From Escherichia phage slur07, in the sequence record NC_028780.1: a DNA stretch of 64,000 bases. One strand, given 5' to 3'. Positions within the stretch are counted from its first letter, which is position 1; each line of letters opens with the position of its first letter. The notes below the pieces were generated by a model that ran no database searches, was not told the DNA's origin, and worked only from the letters and a program-made list of their open reading frames with translations. Positions 4,785 through 43,120 of the stretch are shown here, piece by piece. The translations under genes were made by a program, and so were the position numbers.

Positions 4785-4816
4785 AGACCCTCCTTTTAAG
4801 GATATTTATTCAAAAA

Positions 4817-5608
4817 TTATACTCTTGAACCATATATTGTGCCAACTTTAGTCCAAGTTGGAGCGTTACCAGTAACAGCTTTACCAGCCGCACCGCCCGA
4901 GTGAACAGTTCCTCCAGTACCACCTTGAATATATGAAGACTTGCCAGCAGCTCCCAAATCTCCACCATTTCCTCCATAGTGAACCCCAGAAACAGTACCT
5001 TTACCAGGAGCAGAAATTGTACCAGCAGATGCTGCCGCCGCGCCACCTCCTGCTGCGCCAGCTGCGCCAAATGGACGACCGCCGCCGCCACCAAATATCA
5101 TATCCATTTGAGGGAAAGGATGGTATCTAGCGCCAGCGCCGCCACCGCCACCGCCACCAATAATACCATTATTGTTTATTCTTAAACGAGTTCCAATTCC
5201 GTTATTTATTGCAGTTCCTCCTGCTCCACCAGCAGAGTTACTTCCGCCATTTCCTCCCCGACCTAATACATGAACCCCACTATTAATATTTAAGGTAACA
5301 TATGCATTAGTTAATGAACTAGGAAAATCTAAGCAAGGTTGCCCAGCTGATGAAGAAACAATATTTCCTGTAATAGTAACAACAACAGGAGTACTACCTT
5401 GAGATTTGAGATAATTTATTAGCGTGTCTTTATTATATGAATTACTAGCGCCAATACTGTAATATACTTCTTTAGATTGCCCAGCCATTGAACTCATCCA
5501 ACCGGGAACTGAAACACGAACTGCTCTCATCGCAGCATCCATCCAACGTTGTCCAGTTTCATTCACGGCAGATTCGCCAATCCAGCCAGGAACACCTACA
5601 ATTGCCAT
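4817..5608 (-). CDS. 38: gp38 long-tail-fibre adhesin, T2/T6 type with glycine-rich motifs
   Basis: 263 aa; N-terminus MAIVGVPGWIG..AVNETGQRWM conserved with T2-type gp38; several poly-Gly tracts (GGGGGGGAG, GGGGGRPFG) separating variable segments; immediately downstream of gene 37. Confidence 0.85.
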   Translation of the reverse strand: MAIVGVPGWIGESAVNETGQRWMDAAMRAVRVSVPGWMSSMAGQSKEVYYSIGASNSYNKDTLINYLKSQGSTPVVVTITGNIVSSSAGQPCLDFPSSLTNAYVTLNINSGVHVLGRGGNGGSNSAGGAGGTAINNGIGTRLRINNNGIIGGGGGGGAGARYHPFPQMDMIFGGGGGRPFGAAGAAGGGAAAASAGTISAPGKGTVSGVHYGGNGGDLGAAGKSSYIQGGTGGTVHSGGAAGKAVTGNAPTWTKVGTIYGSRV

Positions 5609-5638
5609 TAAAAATCCTTAGAGGGCCGAAGCCCTCTT

Positions 5639-5938
5639 TTACATAAGTTTAGATTCAAGTTCTTTTACACGAGAAGAAAGTGTTTTCACAGCTTCAACCA
5701 GAAGAGCAATCTGGGATTGAGAAGAAACAGTGAGTATTTTATTACCCTTAATATCTTCAACTTCACGAACTGCTTCTGGTAAAACATCTTGCAGTGTTTG
5801 AGCCACAATACCCGCTTCAGTTTGAACAATTTCACCGCCTATATAGTCAGCTTTATCATAGATTAAACCATCAAGCTGTTCAACCTTTTCAAGAGCATTT
5901 TCAATAGGTCTGAAATTAGATTTCAAACGAATATCAGA
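5639..5938 (-). other. C-terminal intramolecular chaperone-like domain of gp37 (endosialidase-CTD type, predicted autocleavage)
   Basis: Last ~99 aa begin SDIRLKSNFRPIENALEKVEQLDGLIYDK, resembling the S-D-x-R-L-K start of self-cleaving tail-fibre chaperone domains; motif recalled from memory. Confidence 0.5.
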
Positions 5939-8900
5939 ACGAATATAAACGTTTGGGGCATTTATATTCATGTCAGAATAAGTGTCACCCGTTTGGAATC
6001 TCATTCGGCGTGCGGCATTAGTAATGATATCAAGAACTCCGTCAGCGGATTGTTTAATTCCGGTATCATTATCACCAAATGCTATACTATTTCCACCAAG
6101 TGCGTTATTGATATTAATACCAAATGAATTTGTTTGATTAATACCAGCTACAGTAGCATTATTTACTACAAAGCGGTTAGCTCCACCTGGAGTTTTTTCA
6201 AAGTAAGCAATATAGTTAGTTTCATCTGCAATTTCAATGCGGTTACCGCGAGAAGCATCACCAGCATGAAATATTCTCATATTTCTCGGGTTAGCACCAG
6301 ACTTATCAAAGTTAATACTTCCATTATTTTTGATGTTAAGGCCATTATAAAACTCTGATACCCCAGAAACGCTCATAGAGTTTGAAATAGTTACTTTACC
6401 TGAATCGATATTGATAGAAAAAGGTCTCAAGCTATTATAAGAACCGGAGGCTTTAGTTTTATCAGTATCGGTATTTTTATCTGTTAATAATATATGGAAC
6501 GTAGTACCATCATTATAAAACAGAGCAGCTGCAGAGCCACTTTCGTCGCCGTTAGATTTGTGACGGAATCCTATAGTAGTATTTGCCACAAAAGTTGCAT
6601 TTGTAGAAATATTAGAACTACCTGCATCAAAAACGCCTGAGCTATTATTAAGAAGTTTAAAAACACGACCTTTAACAGTATCTACAGGAAGCTCTTCTAC
6701 TGGTGATTGTGTAGGCCCATATAATCCATGAACTACTACTGAAGCGTTTTCTGAAGTGCTATATTCTAATGTAAGTCTATTTAAATAAGTGCCACAATTA
6801 ATATAAACATCATACTCATCGCCTGAGGTATTAATATACGCAATATCTTTAATAGCATCTGTTTCGCGTTGCCATAAAACACCATTAATTCCTTTAGGGC
6901 TGTTATTACCTGAACGCAATACAATTTCATTAATTGTTGCTTGTCTAAAAGTACCAACGTTAAATCCAGAACCACCAGTAATTTTAAATTGAACTGTAGC
7001 CACACCTTGAGGCATAGTTACTGTTGCCAATTTATACCAACCGCTATCGACAGAATAATTAATCCAGCCGGTAGTTACTTTACGGTCTAAAGTAGTGTTT
7101 AAGTTAGCAAAATTACCAGAACCGTTGGTAATATTACCGTCAGTTCCTAGTTGGGCATTTCCGACTTTAAGAGGTTTACTGATTGACACGAAATTATCGC
7201 TTATAACAAGACCGTGTCCATAAGATTGACTATAAAGCGATAAATCACTTCCAGCGCCACCAAGACCAACATACCACGATCTAATTCCAGCTTTAGAACC
7301 TTGTAAATAATTAGCAGAAGAAGATGAAGGAGAATCTAGAGTAAGCGCTGCATTACGTTCATTAATAGTTACTGGACATATCATTTTAATAGTTTTAAGA
7401 CTATTACTTACTTGTAATAATCCTGTACCAGATCCAGAATCTCCTAAATGAACATCATGCGACATTTTAACTGTGCCGGTGTTCAGTTCTATTATCAATG
7501 GTCTAAGATTACTTATACCACCTGATTCTCCAGCATCTTTAAGAGTTGGAATAATATAAAAGTTACTTTCAGAACGACGGAAAATTGCGCCGTATTCAGC
7601 ATTCCAAATTCTTAATGCGTCAGCTGTTCCACCAATTTTTACTTGGCCTGTAATAGAAGAACCACCTTGGACAAACAAACCGTTAGACATAGTAACATTG
7701 CCACCAAAAGAACCTGTACCGGAGGCACTTATATTACCAAGGCCTATGATATGGCCTGTTTCGACAGTTCCGTTAAATTTAAAGTTAACCGGACCTACTG
7801 TTTGACCTGACGCAGGATTAGTACGTTGAGCGTAGAAATAATAACCTTGTGAATCTGAAACTTCGAATACAGTTTCTCTATTACCCTTTTCAGCGTTAAA
7901 TGAATTACCCCATGCTTTAATGGTTACGGTATTTTTATTCTGACCATTACGAGTACCTGCATCCCAGTTAATGGTTTTGGTACCATCTACACCGGAAGGA
8001 GCTTTAAACGATAAAGCATTAGTATTATCATCACCATTTAAAAACAAGCCCGTACGCATAGAAATACGCTGGGTGGAGTTAATTGTTCCGTCTGCTCTAA
8101 TAGCAACGCTATTAGAACCGGTTTTAATATCTAAAATGCCAGGCTCAACAAGAAGCCCATCACCCATACTAACGGACATACGACCTGTACCACGGAAATA
8201 GTGATACATCTTAGCATTGCTGCTATATCCGATATGAGTCTGTCCATCGCCGTTATTATTACCATCAACATCGGTACGCGCAGTAAACATTGCTTGGTTA
8301 TTATTTGGGAAATCCCAAGTAGAACCGGAATCTCGACTATAACCAACCATCAATTTTTTAGTACTATTAATACCATTATTCAAAATGGTAGCAGATGAAA
8401 TACCGTTAGCCATCAGGTCATAAACGCCATCGCGGACCCATTTAATACCGGTATCGTTATCGCCAATCGCAATACCAATAGAAATTGCAGAATCTAAAGG
8501 ATAACGACCATTTGTACCACTATCAGGAAGACCTACAGAAATAGATTTACCTGCAGTAATACGTCCAGAGGTATCAAACGCCCACTGGAAAGACGAAGGT
8601 CCTACACCAGTCCACCAAGAAATTTCTTGCGGCTTACCTTTTCGACAATCAACAATTTCATGGAAAATACTTGATGCGCTTGATGCACGTAATTTACGCA
8701 AATAGTTCAATCCATTTGTAGTATTGTCGGAACCATCGGCCGGTGGGTTATAAACCCAGGTAGGTAAAGAAACAATGTCATAACCCGCGTCATTATTCGG
8801 GATAAAGGTTTTCGTGCTTATGTTAATATTTTTTGTGTTGACACGTGGCGCAGAAACTACCCCAGTAGCCGAATTAATATTACCAGAAGCAGAAATATTT

Positions 8901-9442
8901 CCATCTGTTACTGTCAAACTTCCTGTATCAACAACAAATCCACCATCTCTACGAAATGTCCAGTATTTTGAAGTTCCCGATTCATTGATATAATGAATTT
9001 TAAAACTTCCTTCGTTTACTAGCGTACCAACAGAAAAAGTCCCATCTTTATAACGCTGTTTAATTAGCGGATGGTATTCTGAAGTAGAAGTAGTTGAACT
9101 TAAATCTGTAAAAATAGGGGCTTTATTTAGGTGTTGATTTGCCCAAGCGCCATTACCTGCAGTTTTAGGTAAAAATTCAATATATTTTCCTGCATAAACA
9201 AACTGATTTCCATTGAGATTATATGTACCGTTCTGTAAATAATCTCCAGTTTGAGTGATATTTCCACTGATATTACCGCCAGTGGAAATGCTTAAATCAA
9301 TGATATTTCCTGAATCATCTTTAGTAAAAAGTGTTCTATCTTTTAAGTTTATAGCCAATTCACCTTCGGCTAATACTGAAGCAGCAGGACGTGCACCTGC
9401 GGTTTTGCTTCTTTTAAATTGTATTTGTTTTAAAGTAGCCAT
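5639..9442 (-). CDS. 37: gp37 long-tail-fibre distal subunit
   Basis: 1267 aa; N-terminus MATLKQIQFKRSKTAGARPAASVLAEGELAINLKDRTLFTKDDSGNIIDL matches T4/T2 gp37; C-terminus differs from T4 (no His-box tip). Confidence 0.92.
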   Translation of the reverse strand: MATLKQIQFKRSKTAGARPAASVLAEGELAINLKDRTLFTKDDSGNIIDLSISTGGNISGNITQTGDYLQNGTYNLNGNQFVYAGKYIEFLPKTAGNGAWANQHLNKAPIFTDLSSTTSTSEYHPLIKQRYKDGTFSVGTLVNEGSFKIHYINESGTSKYWTFRRDGGFVVDTGSLTVTDGNISASGNINSATGVVSAPRVNTKNINISTKTFIPNNDAGYDIVSLPTWVYNPPADGSDNTTNGLNYLRKLRASSASSIFHEIVDCRKGKPQEISWWTGVGPSSFQWAFDTSGRITAGKSISVGLPDSGTNGRYPLDSAISIGIAIGDNDTGIKWVRDGVYDLMANGISSATILNNGINSTKKLMVGYSRDSGSTWDFPNNNQAMFTARTDVDGNNNGDGQTHIGYSSNAKMYHYFRGTGRMSVSMGDGLLVEPGILDIKTGSNSVAIRADGTINSTQRISMRTGLFLNGDDNTNALSFKAPSGVDGTKTINWDAGTRNGQNKNTVTIKAWGNSFNAEKGNRETVFEVSDSQGYYFYAQRTNPASGQTVGPVNFKFNGTVETGHIIGLGNISASGTGSFGGNVTMSNGLFVQGGSSITGQVKIGGTADALRIWNAEYGAIFRRSESNFYIIPTLKDAGESGGISNLRPLIIELNTGTVKMSHDVHLGDSGSGTGLLQVSNSLKTIKMICPVTINERNAALTLDSPSSSSANYLQGSKAGIRSWYVGLGGAGSDLSLYSQSYGHGLVISDNFVSISKPLKVGNAQLGTDGNITNGSGNFANLNTTLDRKVTTGWINYSVDSGWYKLATVTMPQGVATVQFKITGGSGFNVGTFRQATINEIVLRSGNNSPKGINGVLWQRETDAIKDIAYINTSGDEYDVYINCGTYLNRLTLEYSTSENASVVVHGLYGPTQSPVEELPVDTVKGRVFKLLNNSSGVFDAGSSNISTNATFVANTTIGFRHKSNGDESGSAAALFYNDGTTFHILLTDKNTDTDKTKASGSYNSLRPFSINIDSGKVTISNSMSVSGVSEFYNGLNIKNNGSINFDKSGANPRNMRIFHAGDASRGNRIEIADETNYIAYFEKTPGGANRFVVNNATVAGINQTNSFGININNALGGNSIAFGDNDTGIKQSADGVLDIITNAARRMRFQTGDTYSDMNINAPNVYIRSDIRLKSNFRPIENALEKVEQLDGLIYDKADYIGGEIVQTEAGIVAQTLQDVLPEAVREVEDIKGNKILTVSSQSQIALLVEAVKTLSSRVKELESKLM

Positions 9443-17438: not shown

Positions 17439-17469
17439 TTGCTTATTATAAATAGATTATAATTATCTC

Positions 17470-20406: not shown

Positions 20407-20754
20407 ATGAATTTTAATTATTACCCTATTCTATTAGAAAAAGACACGAAACAACCAAAATGGCAGGGTCCTCAGTTTATTAAAGGTGTCTATCAATTAG
20501 TAGTTCCTAAAGATAAGATTTATAGTAGTTGTTTTACTGAATCCGCTTGCAGTATTTTCGGTAATAGTTCTCCGTATTGGAATTTTGACATAAAGTTGGA
20601 TAGAAATATCGATATTTGGTTGAAAGCTATGGATATTGGTAATATCACGTTTGATGAGAATAATTATCATATTATTGGTCGCTTTTCCAAACGCGGTAAA
20701 GAATTATATTTCACGCCTGAAATTGAGAGAAAATTTGATGCTAAACCGTATTGA
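20407..20754 (+). CDS. hypothetical protein inserted between frd and td
   Basis: 115-aa ORF with no counterpart I can place in T4, where frd and td abut. Confidence 0.55.
   Translation: MNFNYYPILLEKDTKQPKWQGPQFIKGVYQLVVPKDKIYSSCFTESACSIFGNSSPYWNFDIKLDRNIDIWLKAMDIGNITFDENNYHIIGRFSKRGKELYFTPEIERKFDAKPY

Positions 20755-28731: not shown

Positions 28732-28735
<4 letters not shown>
28505..28735 (+). CDS. hypothetical protein
   Basis: 76-aa ORF translationally coupled to neighbours. Confidence 0.5.
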
Positions 28736-29938
<1,203 letters not shown>

Positions 29939-30607: not shown

Positions 30608-30669
30608 TAGTTTACTTTACAGTAGAGTTGTGATATTATGGCTCTACCAAACAAATGAGGAAATTGAAA

Positions 30670-31197
30670 ATGAGCGAATGGTTTGAAGAAGATAAGGTTT
30701 ATCGCTTTAAAGCTGGATATAAAGATATTTTTAATGAAACTTGCGGGGCTAATAAACGAATTGCTCAGTTTATTGGGGAAAATTCATTTAAAGTAAAAAT
30801 TGATCCCGCGAAAAATGTTATTAGCATTAAACGTGAAATTGACGATTACTGGTATAAAGCTGTTGATGTAATGGGTGAATGCTATAAAGATAGCCCATTA
30901 TTTTCAATTACTTATATGTCAGAATATTATTTTTTCGAAGAAGTTCAAAAAGATGATTCTGTCAGTAAATTTGAAATTAAAACTGATAAAGAAATTAAAT
31001 GGAAAGTAGTAGGTATTACTGGTTGTATGTTTTATATCTATGCTCAAACTGATACGAAGGAAGAAGCTAAAAAGAAAGCTCTAGAATATCTTGAAGAGTA
31101 TGAAGAAGGCCCGGTAATGATTACTCAAGATGCTGAATTAGTTTCTGTCAAATTAGTTAAAAACGTTGAAAGTAAGGAGCTGGGATCAACATGCTAA
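30670..31197 (+). CDS. hypothetical protein
   Basis: ORF with GAGGA about 10 nt before ATG 30670 (MSEWFEEDKVYRF...). Confidence 0.55.
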   Translation: MSEWFEEDKVYRFKAGYKDIFNETCGANKRIAQFIGENSFKVKIDPAKNVISIKREIDDYWYKAVDVMGECYKDSPLFSITYMSEYYFFEEVQKDDSVSKFEIKTDKEIKWKVVGITGCMFYIYAQTDTKEEAKKKALEYLEEYEEGPVMITQDAELVSVKLVKNVESKELGSTC

Positions 31198-34117: not shown

Positions 34118-34122
34118 GTTGA

Positions 34123-34147
34123 GGACTCCTTCGGGAGTCCTTTTTTA
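34123..34147 (+). terminator. intrinsic terminator with UUCG tetraloop
   Basis: GGACTCC-TTCG-GGAGTCC followed by TTTTTTATTTT. Confidence 0.7.
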
Positions 34148-34227: not shown

Positions 34228-34560
34228 ATGAAAACGATTAATCTGAACGCTGCAGTTAAAACTAAATGCTTCAATGGTAAATATGATGAAACTATGTGGT
34301 TCTTAATGGCAGTTGAAGGTGATATTATTGAAGTAGAAACAACAGAAGGTATGGGAACAGATTTCACCTTTACAATTCAAGTTCATAATTTCTTTACTGG
34401 TTGGATTTATGAATTGAATACAGTAATCGTTGGAAAAATTGAACAAAATGAATTAGGCGAATGGCATTATGTTACAGCTCGCCAACGTGCAGAACGCTTA
34501 ATTGAGAAGATGAAAAAAGTTGGTAAACTTGACATGCAGCATTGGAAAGTAGTAAAATAA
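34228..34560 (+). CDS. hypothetical protein
   Basis: 110-aa ORF with SD AAGGAG upstream. Confidence 0.55.
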   Translation: MKTINLNAAVKTKCFNGKYDETMWFLMAVEGDIIEVETTEGMGTDFTFTIQVHNFFTGWIYELNTVIVGKIEQNELGEWHYVTARQRAERLIEKMKKVGKLDMQHWKVVK

Positions 34561-35518: not shown

Positions 35519-35721
35519 ATATAATTAATAAGATTTTTGGAATTCAGTACATTAAGGTCACATATAAAGTAACAGATAAAAATCCGTATACTGATGAACA
35601 CGAAGAACCACAAGTTAAGTCTATTATATTAGAAAAGGACCCTAACTGGCCAGTTGAATTTCGTCTTCCTTGCTATGGTCATTGGGCTGATGTTGAAATT
35701 ATAAGCATTGAAAATGTCTGA
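35515..35721 (+). CDS. hypothetical protein
   Basis: 68-aa ORF. Confidence 0.45.
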   Translation: MNIINKIFGIQYIKVTYKVTDKNPYTDEHEEPQVKSIILEKDPNWPVEFRLPCYGHWADVEIISIENV

Positions 35722-36172
35722 GTTAGAGATTAGAAGTAATTTTAGATGGCCATCATGCGCATTAAGTAATTTTGCCCAATGGCCTTTCGTCATGGATGGT
35801 ATTCAATTCGGAGGTCTCGAAGGATTCCTCCAAGGATGTAAGGTGAAAAACGTTGAACAACAACGTCGTATATTTGGATTATCCGGGCTTGCCGCCCAAC
35901 AAGCTGGAAGGTCTTATGCTAGAGCTCAGGACCATGGGACCCTCTTCTGGCTTGGAGTTCCATTTTCAAGATACTCCCCGGCGTGGAAAGAATTATACAC
36001 AAATGCATATTTTGAAGCAGCGATCCAAAACAAGGGCTTTCGTGATGCATTACAAGCCTCGAAAGGAAAAGTTTTGAAGCACAGCATGGCTAGTGGTCTA
36101 ACAAAAGATGATACAATACTAACCGAAGCTGAATTTATTGATGTGTTAAACCTATTAAGAGACTCTCTATGA
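35708..36172 (+). CDS. NADAR/YbiA-like (DUF1768-type) protein
   Basis: 154 aa; segment ALSNFAQWPFVMDGIQFGGLEGFLQGCK aligns by eye with the E. coli YbiA core FSNFAAWPIKVDGKTWPTSEHYFQAQK; His of the EH pair replaced. Confidence 0.6.
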   Translation: MKMSELEIRSNFRWPSCALSNFAQWPFVMDGIQFGGLEGFLQGCKVKNVEQQRRIFGLSGLAAQQAGRSYARAQDHGTLFWLGVPFSRYSPAWKELYTNAYFEAAIQNKGFRDALQASKGKVLKHSMASGLTKDDTILTEAEFIDVLNLLRDSL

Positions 36173-37005
36173 AGCCTACTATTTTAACTGATATTGATGG
36201 AGTATGTTTAAGCTGGCAATCAGGCCTTCCTTATTTTGCTCAGAAATATAATCTTCCGTTAGAACATATTTTAAAAATGATCCAAGATGAGAAATTTATT
36301 TCTCCTGGTAAACTCTTTAACTGTGATGAAGAACTTGGCGTTAAGCTAATTGAAAAATACAATCGATCAGATTTTATTCGTTACTTGTCTCCATATAAAG
36401 ATGCTCTGTGTGTAATTAACAAATTAAAAGAAGATTATAATTTTGTAGCTGTTACAGCATTGGGTGATTCTATTGACGCTCTGTTGAATCGTCAATTTAA
36501 TTTGAATGCTCTTTTTCCTGGTGCCTTCTCAGAAGTAATGATGTGTGGTCATGATTCTTCAAAAGAAGAGTTGTTCAAAAAGGCAAAAGAGAAATATAAC
36601 GTAATTTGTTATATTGACGATCTCGCTCACCACTGCGATCATGCGAGTGAAATATTACGTGTTCCTGTGTATTGGATGGCTCGAGGAGAGCGTGACAGTA
36701 TTCCAAAAACTGCACAGCGAGTTTATACATGGAATGATGTAGAGAATAAGCTTTTTCCATTGAAGGAAAATAAAGAAAGTTTTGATCGTGAAAAAGCTAT
36801 AAAAGATACAATCGAGAAGATGATTAAAAATGATTCTTTTCGTTGGAACACTACCTGGAGAACTCCTGGATTTAATCCTTATAATCCATATCATCCATAT
36901 CAGACGCATCCGTTTCAGACATGGAACTATATTAAACCCGGTGGTATAGAGTATTTGTATAATAGACCTACTTGTGGTGATAATATTTTCCAAGGAGCAT
37001 TCTAA
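36169..37005 (+). CDS. HAD-superfamily phosphatase-like protein with Pro/aromatic-rich C-terminal tail
   Basis: 278 aa; N-terminal HAD motif I LTDIDGV; C-terminus FNPYNPYHPYQTHPFQTWNY. Confidence 0.6.
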   Translation: MKPTILTDIDGVCLSWQSGLPYFAQKYNLPLEHILKMIQDEKFISPGKLFNCDEELGVKLIEKYNRSDFIRYLSPYKDALCVINKLKEDYNFVAVTALGDSIDALLNRQFNLNALFPGAFSEVMMCGHDSSKEELFKKAKEKYNVICYIDDLAHHCDHASEILRVPVYWMARGERDSIPKTAQRVYTWNDVENKLFPLKENKESFDREKAIKDTIEKMIKNDSFRWNTTWRTPGFNPYNPYHPYQTHPFQTWNYIKPGGIEYLYNRPTCGDNIFQGAF

Positions 37006-37274
37006 TGTTTGTTGTTCACACTATTTATGAAAATGAAGGTAATACTACACGTGATTATGGTCACGTAAATCAATTTTTTAGATGCAATCCAGAATTCCGA
37101 GCTCAAAAAGACGAACGAATTTTTAAAAAATGTGTAGAGCAAGGTTTCATTTACGTCAAGCACTGGATGCAAGGAAATAAAGTTAGAACCACATATCATA
37201 GGTCTTTGACTGAGCTTAATGATGAATTGATTTATAATAGAGCTGTAAACCAAACTCTAAAGGATGAACAATGA
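37005..37274 (+). CDS. hypothetical protein
   Basis: 89-aa ORF between HAD gene and gene 30. Confidence 0.5.
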   Translation: MFVVHTIYENEGNTTRDYGHVNQFFRCNPEFRAQKDERIFKKCVEQGFIYVKHWMQGNKVRTTYHRSLTELNDELIYNRAVNQTLKDEQ

Positions 37275-38734
37275 TTCTTAAAATTCTGAACGAAATAGCA
37301 TCTATTGGTTCAACTAAGCAGAAGCAAGCAATTCTTGAAAAGAATAAAGATAATGAATTGCTTAAACGAGTATATCGTCTGACTTATTCTCGTGGGTTGC
37401 AGTATTATATCAAGAAATGGCCTAAACCTGGTATTGCTACCCAGAGTTTTGGAATGTTGACTCTTACCGATATGCTTGACTTCATTGAATTTACATTAGC
37501 TACTCGGAAATTGACTGGAAATGCGGCAATTGAGGAATTAGTAGGTTATATTACTGACGGTAAAAAAGATGATGTTGAAGTTTTGCGTCGAGTGATGATG
37601 CGAGACCTTGAATGTGGTGCTTCAGTATCTATTGCAAACAAAGTTTGGCCAGGTTTAATTCCTGAACAACCTCAAATGCTCGCAAGTTCTTATGATGAAA
37701 AAGGCATTAGTAAGAATATCAAATTTCCAGCCTTTGCACAATTAAAAGCAGATGGAGCTCGGTGTTTTGCTGAAGTTAGAGGTGATGAATTAGATGATGT
37801 CCGTCTTTTATCACGAGCTGGTAATGAATATCTAGGATTAGATCTTCTTAAGGAAGAGTTAATCAAAATGACCGCTGAAGCCCGCCAGATTCATCCAGAA
37901 GGTGTGTTAATTGATGGCGAATTGGTATACCATGAGCAAGTTAAAAAGGAGCCAGAAGGCCTAGATTTTCTTTTTGATGCTTATCCTGAAATTAGTAAAG
38001 CTAAAGAGTTTGCTGAAGTAGCTGAATCACGTACTACTTCTAATGGAATCGCTAATAAATCTTTAAAGGGAACTATTTCAGAAAAAGAAGCACAATGCAT
38101 GAAGTTTCAGGTCTGGGATTATGTTCCGTTGGTAGAAATATACGGTCTTCCTGCATTTCGTTTGAAATATGATGTACGTTTTTCTAAACTAGAACAAATG
38201 ACATCAGGCTATGATAAAGTAATTTTAATTGAAAACCAGGTAGTAAATAACCTAAATGAAGCTAAGGTAATTTATAAAAAATATATTGACCAAGGTCTTG
38301 AAGGTATTATTCTCAAAAATATCGATGGATTATGGGAAAATGCTCGTTCAAAAAATCTCTATAAATTTAAAGAAGTAATTGATGTTGATTTAAAAATTGT
38401 AGGAATTTATCCTCACCGTAAAGACCCTACTAAAGCGGGTGGATTTATTCTTGAGTCAGAGTGTGGAAAAATTAAAGTAAATGCTGGTTCAGGCTTAAAA
38501 GATAAAGCCGGCGTAAAATCGCATGAACTTGACCGTACTCGCATTATGGAAAACCAAAATTATTATATTGGAAAAATTCTAGAGTGCGAATGCAACGGTT
38601 GGTTAAAATCTGATGGCCGCACTGATTACGTTAAATTATTTCTTCCGATTGCGATTCGTTTGCGTGAAGATAAAACTAAAGCTAATACATTCGAGGATGT
38701 ATTTGGTGATTTTCATGAGGTAACTGGTTTATGA
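37271..38734 (+). CDS. 30: ATP-dependent DNA ligase (gp30)
   Basis: 487 aa, same length as T4 DNA ligase; adenylation motif KADGARC. Confidence 0.95.
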   Translation: MILKILNEIASIGSTKQKQAILEKNKDNELLKRVYRLTYSRGLQYYIKKWPKPGIATQSFGMLTLTDMLDFIEFTLATRKLTGNAAIEELVGYITDGKKDDVEVLRRVMMRDLECGASVSIANKVWPGLIPEQPQMLASSYDEKGISKNIKFPAFAQLKADGARCFAEVRGDELDDVRLLSRAGNEYLGLDLLKEELIKMTAEARQIHPEGVLIDGELVYHEQVKKEPEGLDFLFDAYPEISKAKEFAEVAESRTTSNGIANKSLKGTISEKEAQCMKFQVWDYVPLVEIYGLPAFRLKYDVRFSKLEQMTSGYDKVILIENQVVNNLNEAKVIYKKYIDQGLEGIILKNIDGLWENARSKNLYKFKEVIDVDLKIVGIYPHRKDPTKAGGFILESECGKIKVNAGSGLKDKAGVKSHELDRTRIMENQNYYIGKILECECNGWLKSDGRTDYVKLFLPIAIRLREDKTKANTFEDVFGDFHEVTGL

Positions 38735-38968: not shown

Positions 38969-41059
38969 ATGATGGAACTCATTACAGAATTATTTGACGA
39001 AGATACTACTCTTCCGATTACAAACTTAAATCCAAAGAAGAAAATACCACAAATTTTTTCAGTTCATGTTGATGATGCAATTGAACAACCAGGCTTTCGT
39101 TTATGTACCTATACATCTGGAGGTGATACTAATCGCGATTTAAAAATGGGCGATAAAATGATGCATATCGTTCCTTTTACATTAACTGCAAAGGGGTCAA
39201 TTGCTAAATTAAAGGGTCTTGGACCGAGTCCTATTAATTACATCAATTCAGTATTTACCGTAGCAATGCAAACAATGAAACAGTATAAAATTGATGCATG
39301 TATGCTACGCATTCTTAAGTCTAAAACCGCCGGTCAAGCTCGACAAATTCAACTTATTGCTGATAGACTTATCCGTAGTCGTTCAGGTGGCAGATACGTC
39401 CTTCTTAAGGAACTCTGGGATTACGATAAAAAGTATGCATATATTCTTATACATCGTAAAAACGTATCACTAGAAGACATTCCAGGAGTTCCAGAAATTA
39501 GTACTGAACTCTTTACTAAGGTTGAATCGAAGGTCGGTGATGTTTATATCAATAAAGATACTGGAGCCCAAGTAACTAAAAATGAGGCAATTGCAGCATC
39601 AATTGCACAAGAAAATGATAAACGTTCTGACCAAGCCGTAATCGTTAAAGTTAAAATTTCCCGTAGAGCAATTGCGCAAAGTCAATCATTGGAATCTTCT
39701 AGATTTGAAAGTGAATTATTCCAGAAGTATGAATCTACCGCAGCTAATTTCAATAAACCTGCTACCGCTCCTTTAATTCCCGAAGCAGAAGAAATGAAGC
39801 TTGGAATTAATTCATTAGCTTCTAAAACTAAGGCAGCAAAAATTATTGCTGAAGGAACTGCAGATGAACTTCATTATGACTATAAATTCTTTTCAAAAAG
39901 TGAGGTTAATGAAGTTTCTGAAAAAATTAAAGATGTAATTCTTAATGCGATTAAAAATGAACCAACTACTTCAATAAAATGTTTAGAGAAATACGCAGCA
40001 GCTGTTAATCAACTCTTTGAAGAATATAAAGATAATTGGCTTGATAAACATAATAAAACTCGTAAAGGGCAGCCAGATGAAGTCTGGGAAGAAATAACTA
40101 AAAATGCCTGGAATGCAGCAAAAACTAAATTCCTCAAAAGAATGATTTATAGTTTTTCTGGAATTGGTGCAGGTCCAATGATTGATATTACTATTGCCCG
40201 TGATGGTTCTAAATATACTCCATCACAAAAGCGCGGCATTAGAGAGTATTGTGGTTCAGGATATACTGACATCAATAATCTTCTTTTAGGTCGTTACAAT
40301 CCAGAACGATATGATGTAATGAGTGAAAAAGAAATTGAATCTGCTATAAATAATTTAGATTCAGCTTTTGAAAATGGTGACCGCATACCGGAAGGCATTA
40401 CAGTTTATCGTGCTCAAAGTATGACTGCTCCTATATACGAAGCGCTAGTTAAAAATAAAGTGTTCTATTTCAGAAATTTTGTATCTACTTCTTTAACTCC
40501 TATCATTTTTGGGCGTTTTGGAATTACACATGCTGGTATTGGTCTTTTAGAACCAGAAGCTCGTAATGAATTGACAGTTGATAAAAATGAAGAAGGAATA
40601 ACTATTAATCCAAACGAAATAAGAGCGTATAAAGAAAATCCTGAATACGTTAAAGTTCAAATAGGATGGGCAATTGATGGAGCTCATAAAGTTAATGTTG
40701 TATATCCAGGAAGTCTAGGAATAGCAACAGAAGCTGAAGTTATTCTACCGCGTGGATTGATGGTCAAAGTTAATAAAATAACTGATGCTTCTAATAATGA
40801 CGGAACCACGTCTAATAATACAAAACTCATTCAAGCTGAAGTTATGACCACCGAAGAACTCACCGAATCGGTAATCTATGACGGAGACCGTTTAATGGAA
40901 ACCGGCGAAGTAGTTGCAATGACAGGTGATATAGAAGATAGAGTTGACTTTGCATCATTTGTTTCATCAAATGTTAAACAGAAAGTAGAATCATCTCTTG
41001 GAATTATTGCGTCTTGCATAGATATTACAAACATGCCTTACAAGTTCGTTCAAGGATAA
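38969..41059 (+). CDS. alt: Alt ADP-ribosyltransferase (injected, modifies host RNA polymerase)
   Basis: 696 aa; N-terminus MELITELFDEDTTLPITNL matches T4 Alt; catalytic motifs YRAQS (Arg), FVSTS (STS), TEAEVILPRG (E-x-E). Confidence 0.9.
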   Translation: MMELITELFDEDTTLPITNLNPKKKIPQIFSVHVDDAIEQPGFRLCTYTSGGDTNRDLKMGDKMMHIVPFTLTAKGSIAKLKGLGPSPINYINSVFTVAMQTMKQYKIDACMLRILKSKTAGQARQIQLIADRLIRSRSGGRYVLLKELWDYDKKYAYILIHRKNVSLEDIPGVPEISTELFTKVESKVGDVYINKDTGAQVTKNEAIAASIAQENDKRSDQAVIVKVKISRRAIAQSQSLESSRFESELFQKYESTAANFNKPATAPLIPEAEEMKLGINSLASKTKAAKIIAEGTADELHYDYKFFSKSEVNEVSEKIKDVILNAIKNEPTTSIKCLEKYAAAVNQLFEEYKDNWLDKHNKTRKGQPDEVWEEITKNAWNAAKTKFLKRMIYSFSGIGAGPMIDITIARDGSKYTPSQKRGIREYCGSGYTDINNLLLGRYNPERYDVMSEKEIESAINNLDSAFENGDRIPEGITVYRAQSMTAPIYEALVKNKVFYFRNFVSTSLTPIIFGRFGITHAGIGLLEPEARNELTVDKNEEGITINPNEIRAYKENPEYVKVQIGWAIDGAHKVNVVYPGSLGIATEAEVILPRGLMVKVNKITDASNNDGTTSNNTKLIQAEVMTTEELTESVIYDGDRLMETGEVVAMTGDIEDRVDFASFVSSNVKQKVESSLGIIASCIDITNMPYKFVQG

Positions 41060-41062
41060 ATC

Positions 41063-43120
41063 ATGGAACTTATTACAGAATTATTTGACGGCGCTTCGGC
41101 GCCGGTTGTTAACTTAAATCCTAAGCATAAAATACCACAAATTTTTGCTATCCAAGCCGGCGAAGAAAGCGTGCTTCCTGGATTTAGATTTTGTACATAC
41201 ACCTCTGGTGGTGATACAAATAAAAACGTTAAGCCAGGCGATAAAATGATGCATATCGTAATGATAGGTGTCAATGAGAAACTATCATTAGTTAAGCTTA
41301 AAAACTTGGGTGGAAATCCAATTGGTGTCATTAATGCCGTTTTTGATACTGCTCTTCAAACAATGAAACAGTATAAAATCGACGCATGCCTATTCCGCGT
41401 ACTAAAGAGTAAAACAAATGGCGCAGCTCGTCAAATGCAAGTTATTGCTGACCGTTTAGTACGTACTAAAGGAGCAGGTCGATATGTTCTCTTAAAGGAA
41501 ATCTGGGACTATGATAAGAAATATGCATATATTATGGTTTACCGTAAAAATGCCAATTTAGAAGACATTCCAGGTGTACCTCCTATTTCAACTGAGTTAT
41601 TCACAAAAGTTGAATCAAAGGTTGGTGATGTTTATGTAGACGTTAAAACAGGTAATGCTGTTCCTAAAGCTGTCGCTGTTGCTGCTTCTATTGCTTTAGA
41701 AAATGATAAGCGCACTGATCAAGCTGTTATTCAGAAAACTAAAATTAGTCGTCGATTAGCAGCACAAGCTCAATATTCTACTGTTGATGCTTCACTTCAG
41801 GGTGATAGCTTCGCTGCCAAGAAATATCAAGAGTTTGAATCTAAAGTTCCGGTATATAAAGCAGAAGGACCAATGAACTCTGGCGTTATCCAGATTGGTT
41901 CAAACTTCAGCAAAGGAGCTATCGGTGGTATGAGAAGTGCTTCTCGTTTTAAATCTAATGATTATGAACTAGAAAGTTTCCGAAATCATATTGCATTGAC
42001 CCATGCACGTTTACGCGATCCATCTATCAAGCTGCAGAGCGATATAACATATCAAGGTTCTCAAGAATATTTAAAGAATAAAGAATTCTTTGATTATAAA
42101 ACTGATAAAATTTTAAGCGATCTTGCTGACATTAATATTTCTAATAGCTTTGATGTTATTAAGAAAATTATCAATGATTTAGTTAAAGATTCTAAAGCTA
42201 CATCAGATGAAAAGACAGCTATTATTCAATTTGTAATGAATGGCATTTATAAATTGATTAATGAATCTGCTGCTCAGGCATATGAATACGCAAGCACCGA
42301 AGTAACTCCAAAAGGACTGACTCAGGCTGAATCTGATGTAATTGAAGATTATTGTGCAGATTCATATGTTGAAATGAACTCGTTCCTTTTGGGTAAACCA
42401 GATTCTACCCGTGAAGAATACATGGAAAGAGCTATTAATCACATCGAGACGTTAGATTCTGCCTTTGCCAAAGGATCAGTTCTTCCTCCAGGAACTACAC
42501 TTTACCGTGGACAAGAAGTTACCTTTAAAACTTTGCGTCATAACATTGAAAACAAAATGTTCTATTTCAAGAACTTCGTATCGACATCACTTAAACCAAA
42601 TATCTTCGGTGAGCATGGTAAAAACTATATGGCTCTAGATGATTCCGGCGCAGTATTTTCTGGCGAAGGAGAAGGTTCCGTTGATGCAGAAGATTTAATG
42701 CATATGGGTAGTCATTCTACATATGCCAATGAAGATGCTGAAACTAGCGTAGGTATGGTAATTAAAGGGGCTGAGCGAATCAAAGTTATCGTTCCAGGTC
42801 ATTTATCAGGATTTCCATCAGAAGCTGAAGTTATTCTACCACGTGGAATTTTACTGAAGATTAATAAAGTAAGTACGTACTTTATGAAAGAAACTGCTTA
42901 TAACAAGTATCTAATCGAAGGTACAATCGTTCCTCCTTCTGAACAATTAGAGGAATCGGTATATGATGGCGACCATTTAATGGAAACTGGTGAAGTTCGT
43001 CCAATGGCTGGATTTAATCAATTCCTTGTAGAAGAATCAAAAGAAGAGGAAAACGAAGTTTCTCAAATCTTGGCTTCTTTGGTTAACATCAACGGAATGT
43101 CTAAAAAGTTCAAAATGTAG
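41063..43120 (+). CDS. Alt paralogue (second ADP-ribosyltransferase)
   Basis: 685 aa; same fold signature with YRGQ, FVSTS, SEAEVILPRG; conserved N-terminal third, divergent central region. Confidence 0.85.
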   Translation: MELITELFDGASAPVVNLNPKHKIPQIFAIQAGEESVLPGFRFCTYTSGGDTNKNVKPGDKMMHIVMIGVNEKLSLVKLKNLGGNPIGVINAVFDTALQTMKQYKIDACLFRVLKSKTNGAARQMQVIADRLVRTKGAGRYVLLKEIWDYDKKYAYIMVYRKNANLEDIPGVPPISTELFTKVESKVGDVYVDVKTGNAVPKAVAVAASIALENDKRTDQAVIQKTKISRRLAAQAQYSTVDASLQGDSFAAKKYQEFESKVPVYKAEGPMNSGVIQIGSNFSKGAIGGMRSASRFKSNDYELESFRNHIALTHARLRDPSIKLQSDITYQGSQEYLKNKEFFDYKTDKILSDLADINISNSFDVIKKIINDLVKDSKATSDEKTAIIQFVMNGIYKLINESAAQAYEYASTEVTPKGLTQAESDVIEDYCADSYVEMNSFLLGKPDSTREEYMERAINHIETLDSAFAKGSVLPPGTTLYRGQEVTFKTLRHNIENKMFYFKNFVSTSLKPNIFGEHGKNYMALDDSGAVFSGEGEGSVDAEDLMHMGSHSTYANEDAETSVGMVIKGAERIKVIVPGHLSGFPSEAEVILPRGILLKINKVSTYFMKETAYNKYLIEGTIVPPSEQLEESVYDGDHLMETGEVRPMAGFNQFLVEESKEEENEVSQILASLVNINGMSKKFKM

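Follow-up and report, generated by a model that had tools for sequence, protein, structure and literature searches.

An adfN (gene 30.3) orthologue in Escherichia phage slur07, a NADAR-superfamily protein that probably counters DarT1 by guanine de-ADP-ribosylation

Characterized NADAR proteins and the T-even anti-DarT factor

The closest described relatives of the gene discussed here are the NADAR-superfamily proteins of the T-even phages, studied by Johannesman et al. in a bioRxiv report of 2024 (PMC11257639) and a Nature Communications paper of 2025 (PMC11825919). T-even resistance to DarTG1 was mapped to gene 30.3 by phage crosses, and the gene was renamed adfN, for anti-DarT factor NADAR (PMC11257639; PMC11825919). 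Deletion of adfN in T4 or T2 lowers plating on DarTG1 about 10,000-fold (~four orders of magnitude), and expression of T4 adfN rescues RB69, a DarTG1-sensitive phage in which a frameshift removes the final 15 residues of the protein (PMC11257639; PMC11825919). The substitutions E36A and K43A as well as truncation impair T4 AdfN, and the purified protein strips ADP-ribose from DarT1-modified DNA (PMC11257639; PMC11825919). AdfN shows no two-hybrid contact with DarT1 and has no effect on DarTG2 (PMC11257639; PMC11825919). Independently, Cihlova et al. found that phage gp30.3 hydrolyses guanine-linked ADP-ribose (guanine-ADPr) and not thymine-ADPr in vitro (PMC11125620). The T4 enzyme is inactive on cytosine-ADPr, also takes guanine-ADPr off RNA in vitro and is still effective in a T4 strain without any DNA modifications. 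Publications between 2023 and 2026 already describe the gene together with its fold, chemistry and anti-DarTG1 role.

According to the mechanism proposed, DarT1 would attach ADP-ribose to guanine of the phage DNA when a host carrying DarTG1 is infected, and replication would be blocked. AdfN, a minimal single-domain phage NADAR, would then cut the bond between ADP-ribose and guanine, leaving an intact base so that replication continues. The target of AdfN would be the DNA, and the toxin would not be bound. In the active site, E36 and H123 would surround the distal ribose, with K43 placed at the phosphates and adenine. The enzyme would be specific for guanine-linked ADP-ribose, acting neither on the thymine-linked form (DarT2) nor on the cytosine-linked one. 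T4 AdfN does not rescue uninfected E. coli from DarT1 and helps phages T5 and Bas25 only weakly; its full effect is confined to T-even infection, and DNA modification does not account for this. A DNA repair enzyme acting by itself is therefore not the whole picture, and the original authors suggested that AdfN may depend on another T-even protein.

Other characterized NADARs differ from AdfN in sequence, context or behaviour. DarG1 (E. coli C7; Geobacter lovleyi, PDB 8bat) has an Asp where AdfN has H123, and additional elements at its N-terminus give it a positively charged channel; phage AdfN is the bare core. DarG1 is encoded beside darT1 and rescues cells from DarT1, whereas AdfN is an orphan that leaves uninfected cells unrescued. 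E. coli YbiA (PDB 2b3w), about 17-20% identical to AdfN, combines a Glu-His pair with a Glu on the last strand, whereas AdfN combines Glu-Gly with His; YbiA has been linked to riboflavin intermediates and swarming (PMC11125620). The Phytophthora nicotianae NADAR (PDB 8bau, ADP-ribose bound) is a eukaryotic protein of 189 aa, with Glu and not His on the last strand. The NADARs of phages Bas32 and Bas60 resemble AdfN in being phage-encoded and directed against DarTG1. They branch elsewhere in the NADAR tree and, unlike T4 AdfN, neutralise DarT1 in the absence of infection and work for unrelated phages.

The slur07 gene and its place in the NADAR superfamily

We analysed 64,000 nucleotides of Escherichia phage slur07 (NC_028780.1), hereafter the window. 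The phage is a Tequatrovirus (T4-like) and the window keeps T4 gene order; on a blastn map it corresponds to the reverse complement of T4 positions 165001 to 101522. The gene of interest lies between genes 30.4 and 30.2, the orthologous position in Tequatrovirus.

35714..36172, + strand: adfN (T4 gene 30.3), 152-aa NADAR-superfamily ADP-ribosylglycohydrolase, stop codon included
35708..35713, + strand: TTG AAA, the two extra codons of a 154-aa reading; the T4 annotation begins at the ATG

We consider the gene at 35714..36172 to be the orthologue of T4 gene 30.3, and its product to counter DarT1 by guanine de-ADP-ribosylation, with a probability of about 0.93.

A + strand open reading frame of 154 aa extends from a TTG at 35708 to 36172, and a previous reading made from the letters alone (the sequence-only reading) had taken all of it as the gene. 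The reading frame is real; its start, however, belongs two codons further inside, at the ATG at 35714, which is the start of gene 30.3 in the T4 annotation. We prefer this ATG because the published numbering of E36 and K43 is compatible with it only, and the TTG AAA codons upstream are probably untranslated. The ATG overlaps the stop of gene 30.4 (ATGTCTGA), and the adfN stop in turn overlaps the start of gene 30.2 (ATGA).

The slur07 product is equal in length to T4 gp30.3 and identical to it at 150/152 residues, differing only by R74H and I125M, and it shares with the T4 protein its genome position, E36, K43, H123 and the C-terminal helix. Identity to the T2 protein is again 150/152. [quoted passage not shown] The protein of Escherichia phage vB_Eco_TB37 is 100% identical. 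Over the 3.8 kb compared around adfN, nucleotide identity is 99.7% to vB_Eco_TB37 and about 97% to T4, and most of this region is present in 493 phage records. Using tblastn, we found a gp30.3 homologue in 1509 phage records, mostly from T4-superfamily phages of Escherichia, Klebsiella, Aeromonas, Acinetobacter and Vibrio.

Removal of ADP-ribose from guanine and a role against DarT, both put forward in the sequence-only reading, have been shown experimentally for these 150/152-identical T4 and T2 orthologues. Orthology, fold, residues and full length are established here for slur07 AdfN itself. Since identity is about 99% and both the catalytic residues and the C-terminal helix are intact, we infer with high confidence that the slur07 allele (R74H and I125M relative to T4) would act like the T4 and T2 proteins.

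AdfN matches Pfam PF08010 (Phage_30_3) over profile positions 1-138 of 138 with E = 5e-70; the score of 234.1 bits, against a curated cut-off of 36 bits, places this profile match far above chance. It also matches PHROG 652 (E = 2.6e-51). With the single AdfN sequence, Pfam NADAR (PF08719) gave no match at E <= 1, no NCBIfam model matched, and phmmer against PDB sequences found no chain and no NADAR. The NADAR assignment consequently needed tests at the level of the family and the fold. The sequence-only reading had offered a Pfam NADAR search as one of its checks; for the single sequence, taking that check literally leads to a wrong rejection.

At the family level, PF08719 is matched by 23 of 58 gp30.3 family members (full-length relatives from a metagenome protein search), with a best E of 1.5e-07. 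A profile of the gp30.3 family searched against the PDB has E. coli YbiA (2b3w) as its top match (E = 0.008), in an alignment covering YbiA residues 29-82. The alignment pairs SNFA with YbiA S30-A33 and DG with D40-G41, and E36, G37, Q40 and K43 of AdfN with E48, H49, Q52 and K55 of YbiA. The NADAR/YbiA signature that had been spotted by eye is present as A16-L-S-N-F-A-Q-W-P24, D28-G29, E36 and K43.

At the fold level, an AlphaFold2 model of AdfN built on the family alignment has a mean pLDDT of 92.7 and a pTM of 0.88. Foldseek of this model against the PDB returns YbiA first (E = 3.4e-05, TM 0.70), and the top three are YbiA, the Phytophthora NADAR with ADP-ribose (8bau) and the Geobacter lovleyi NADAR (8bat); every match beyond these three has E > 1. 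The comparison with YbiA and NADAR structures that had been called for earlier retrieves three NADARs ahead of anything else, and the predicted fold of AdfN is that of a NADAR.

Active-site residues and the Glu-Gly pair

Four features of adfN bear on function:

35819..35824, + strand: codons of E36 (the catalytic Glu) and G37, the 'Glu-Gly' pair, read from the sequence; E36 aligns with YbiA E48
35840..35842, + strand: codon of K43, the Lys that binds the phosphates and adenine of ADP-ribose
36080..36082, + strand: codon of H123, the last-strand residue, invariant in the family alignment
36125..36169, + strand: C-terminal helix, residues 138-152, intact; helix 138-151 in the model; lost by frameshift in DarTG1-sensitive RB69

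In the ADP-ribose complex of the Phytophthora NADAR, the ligand's distal ribose is held by E43 and E125, and K50 touches its phosphates and adenine. In the E. coli C7 antitoxin, mutants of the residues equivalent to E43, K50 and E125 have reduced activity or none. E36 of AdfN is equivalent to Phytophthora E43, and K43 of AdfN to K50 in that enzyme and to K95 in the C7 NADAR. The residues that mutation has shown to matter are the Glu, the Lys seven residues on and the last-strand residue, which is His in phage NADARs. The spacing of seven residues between E36 and K43 of AdfN is that of the Phytophthora enzyme. The last-strand position is occupied by Glu in the YbiA subfamily, by Asp in DarT1-associated NADARs and by His in phage gp30.3 (PMC11125620). 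H123 of slur07 AdfN stands at this position, where YbiA has Glu and DarG1 has Asp.

We counted these residues in 80 independent IMG/VR viral loci, fetched with gp30.3 family patterns. E36, G37 and K43 are each found in 80/80 copies, and H123 in 79/79 complete copies. The C-terminus of slur07 AdfN is L152, as in T4, with no frameshift truncation of the RB69 type.

The sequence-only reading had observed Glu-Gly instead of Glu-His and had for that reason doubted the activity of the product. The observation is correct, and an alignment check of the catalytic acid, which it had also proposed, finds E36 retained, with K43 and H123 there too. The doubt about activity is not borne out. We rejected Glu-Gly as a sign of inactivation, since G37 occurs at every one of the 80 loci and in the active T4 enzyme. 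In the published description consulted, the YbiA His after Glu is not among the ligand contacts or the residues tested for catalysis. Across these loci, the Glu-Gly pair is a fixed trait of the gp30.3 clade and not a lesion.

The last-strand residue also helps to separate AdfN from the other NADAR classes. The YbiA subfamily is defined by a last-strand Glu (E125 of the Phytophthora enzyme), and AdfN has instead His123, invariant in its clade. As to DarG1, slur07 AdfN has His123 and not Asp, its neighbours are genes 30.4 and 30.2, and the ADP-ribosyltransferases nearby are Alt-type (PF03496) and not DarT. Among the alternatives, the best placed, and an improbable one all the same, is that the substrate of AdfN would be chiefly soluble. 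It could then be an ADP-ribose-derived immune signal or a riboflavin-pathway intermediate, as for YbiA-type N-glycosidases, and counter-defence would proceed by destruction of the signal. The T4 protein, however, de-ADP-ribosylates DNA in vitro, its loss sensitises T4 and T2 specifically to DarTG1, a DNA modifier, and AdfN has His in place of the Glu diagnostic of the YbiA subfamily. A secondary small-molecule activity of AdfN is compatible with these observations.

Neighbouring genes and differences from T4

The genes downstream of adfN are as follows:

36169..37005, + strand: gene 30.2, HAD-fold hydrolase, from fold and motif
37271..38734, + strand: gene 30, ATP-dependent DNA ligase (PF01068, E = 3.8e-32; T4 synteny)
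38969..41059, + strand: first Alt-type ADP-ribosyltransferase gene (PF03496, E = 1.8e-37)
41063..43120, + strand: second Alt-type ADP-ribosyltransferase gene (PF03496, E = 1e-19)

Gene 30.1 is a DUF3045 gene. The HAD, ligase and two ADP-ribosyltransferase neighbours named in the sequence-only reading are all present; the first Alt-type gene begins 2.8 kb past the end of adfN, where about 3 kb had been given.

The product of gene 30.2 has no Pfam or NCBIfam match. In an alignment of 46 homologues, D8, D10, K132, D150 and D151 are invariant, fitting the DxD, Lys and DD motifs of HAD enzymes. The AlphaFold model has a pLDDT above 90 over residues 1-195 and gives 111 Foldseek matches at E <= 0.001; among the matches listed all belong to the HAD superfamily, the best being a 5'(3')-deoxyribonucleotidase (E = 1.4e-08). 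The predicted fold and the motifs thus support gene 30.2 as a HAD phosphatase. Residues 229-278 form a low-confidence C-terminal tail rich in Pro, Asn, Tyr and His (NPYNPYHPYQTHPFQTWNY); in many homologues, of about 200 aa, this tail is missing.

The two Alt-type genes differ from their T4 counterparts. The first copy (38969..41059) is 70% identical to T4 Alt overall: roughly its first 250 residues and its C-terminal end are near-identical to T4, and the middle, including the catalytic domain, is much more diverged, which looks like mosaic exchange within the gene. The second (41063..43120) is full-length, with 685 aa, and is 41% identical to the first copy, whereas T4 keeps only remnants of the second Alt duplicate, annotated alt.-1 and alt.-2.

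Among the 80 gp30.3 loci, 20 have a 30.2-type gene within 6 kb (14 of them adjacent), 19 a ligase and 15 an Alt gene, and the loci having one of these nearby are nearly all close relatives. In KVP40 the gp30.3 homologue lies beside genes 47 and 46, and in Aeromonas phage 31 it lies inside a tRNA cluster near nrd genes. We therefore rejected a conserved module of NADAR, HAD, ligase and ADP-ribosyltransferase, seen in few of the 80 loci and replaced by unrelated contexts in KVP40 and Aeromonas phage 31. The proximity of the HAD, ligase and Alt genes to adfN is lineage synteny and not evidence of common function.

These neighbourhoods bear on two further proposals. Gene 30.2 could be the partner needed in T-even infection, aiding AdfN in gaining access to DNA or disposing of the freed ADP-ribose; it is a weak candidate, put forward because its start overlaps the adfN stop, an arrangement of translational coupling. 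We hold this to be slightly less probable than a soluble substrate, given that a 30.2 homologue accompanies only 20/80 gp30.3 homologues within 6 kb and that the genome-wide T4 transposon screen, in its text, lists adfN alone as DarTG1-dependent.

Less probable again is a role for AdfN as a counterweight to Alt and related ADP-ribosyltransferases of the phage itself, undoing either the marks they set or off-target ADP-ribosylation of nucleic acids. Such a role could be read from the two co-oriented Alt-type genes 2.8 kb downstream, from a survey reporting that T4-like NADARs are expressed early alongside ADP-ribosyltransferases and from the ability of the T4 NADAR to remove guanine-ADPr from RNA in vitro. 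An Alt homologue is nevertheless found within 6 kb in only 15/80 gp30.3-bearing loci, and the gp30.3 genes of KVP40 and Aeromonas phage 31 lie in unrelated neighbourhoods. Moreover, the T4 record gives host proteins as the targets of Alt, and none of the reports consulted shows a NADAR reversing protein ADP-ribosylation. In the T4 transposon screen, adfN was dispensable on E. coli K-12 and lost on DarTG1, so that it is conditionally essential; its dispensability on hosts without DarTG1 also speaks against this role. Least probable of all is that slur07 AdfN is weakened or inactive through Glu-Gly or R74H: G37 does replace the YbiA His and R74H is in neither T4 nor T2, but G37 never varies in the clade and the active T4 enzyme has it too, E36, K43, H123 and the C-terminal helix are intact, position 74 lies in a variable loop, and another isolated phage, vB_Eco_TB37, has the identical protein. 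Removal of ADP-ribose from DarT1-modified guanine remains the preferred reading of slur07 adfN.

T4 annotates a gene 30.3' overlapping gene 30.3 ('internal translation in a different reading frame'), which corresponds to 35850..36077 of the window on the + strand, in the +1 frame of adfN. The ATG of T4 30.3' (aaaATGttg) is ACG in the window, a change synonymous in adfN, and the sole start codon left is a TTG at 35853. Close relatives retain the 76 open codons, distant homologues do not (median 45 codons), and 10% of synonymous-codon permutations of adfN reach this length. With this permutation frequency and this loss in distant homologues, 30.3' finds no computational support as a separate conserved gene.

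Possible transcription signals lie upstream of adfN:

34529..34558, + strand: best sigma-70-like promoter match (TTGACA-18-TAAAAT, 11 of 12), upstream of the co-oriented block 30.7 to 30
34121..34142, + strand: strong terminator-like hairpin 3' of gene 30.9, 9 pairs then a T run

The number of sigma-70-like sites in the adfN region is not above the shuffled expectation (17 versus 14 ± 3.5), and the promoter match is a lead, not a finding. From their positions, the hairpin and the promoter match may bound the adfN transcription unit.

Elsewhere, the T4 elements missing from the window are segG, the td intron with I-TevI, mobE plus nrdB.1, the nrdB intron with I-TevIII, and segD. The blastn map, read against the T4 annotation, places the junctions of the missing stretches at 17439/17475, 21347/21352, 24451/24507, 25180/25183 and 58934/58995, and all five stretches carry homing-endonuclease genes or group I introns in T4. 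Three open reading frames have no T4 counterpart in place, and Pfam gives no match for any of them:

20407..20754, + strand: 115-aa open reading frame between frd and td (phrog_1928)
28732..29034, + strand: 100-aa open reading frame before pseT (phrog_2364)
30655..31197, + strand: 180-aa open reading frame between cd.3 and cd.2 (phrog_3710), distantly like FRD2-type proteins

At the nucleotide level, the distal tail-fibre region at 4810..9292 (genes 37 and 38) resembles T4 little or not at all; it is the usual host-range hypervariable region.

For slur07 itself, adfN brings little new biology. The function of adfN was published in 2024-2025, yet nearly all the adfN records among those listed still say 'hypothetical protein', one says 'GP30.3 family protein', and a few JGI entries name gp30.3 relatives 'YbiA (DUF1768 family)'. 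With records left unlabelled, no NCBIfam model for the protein and a PF08010 family name that makes no mention of NADAR, annotation pipelines miss a characterised anti-defence gene. That a single-sequence Pfam NADAR test would wrongly reject AdfN is a caution for automated checks.
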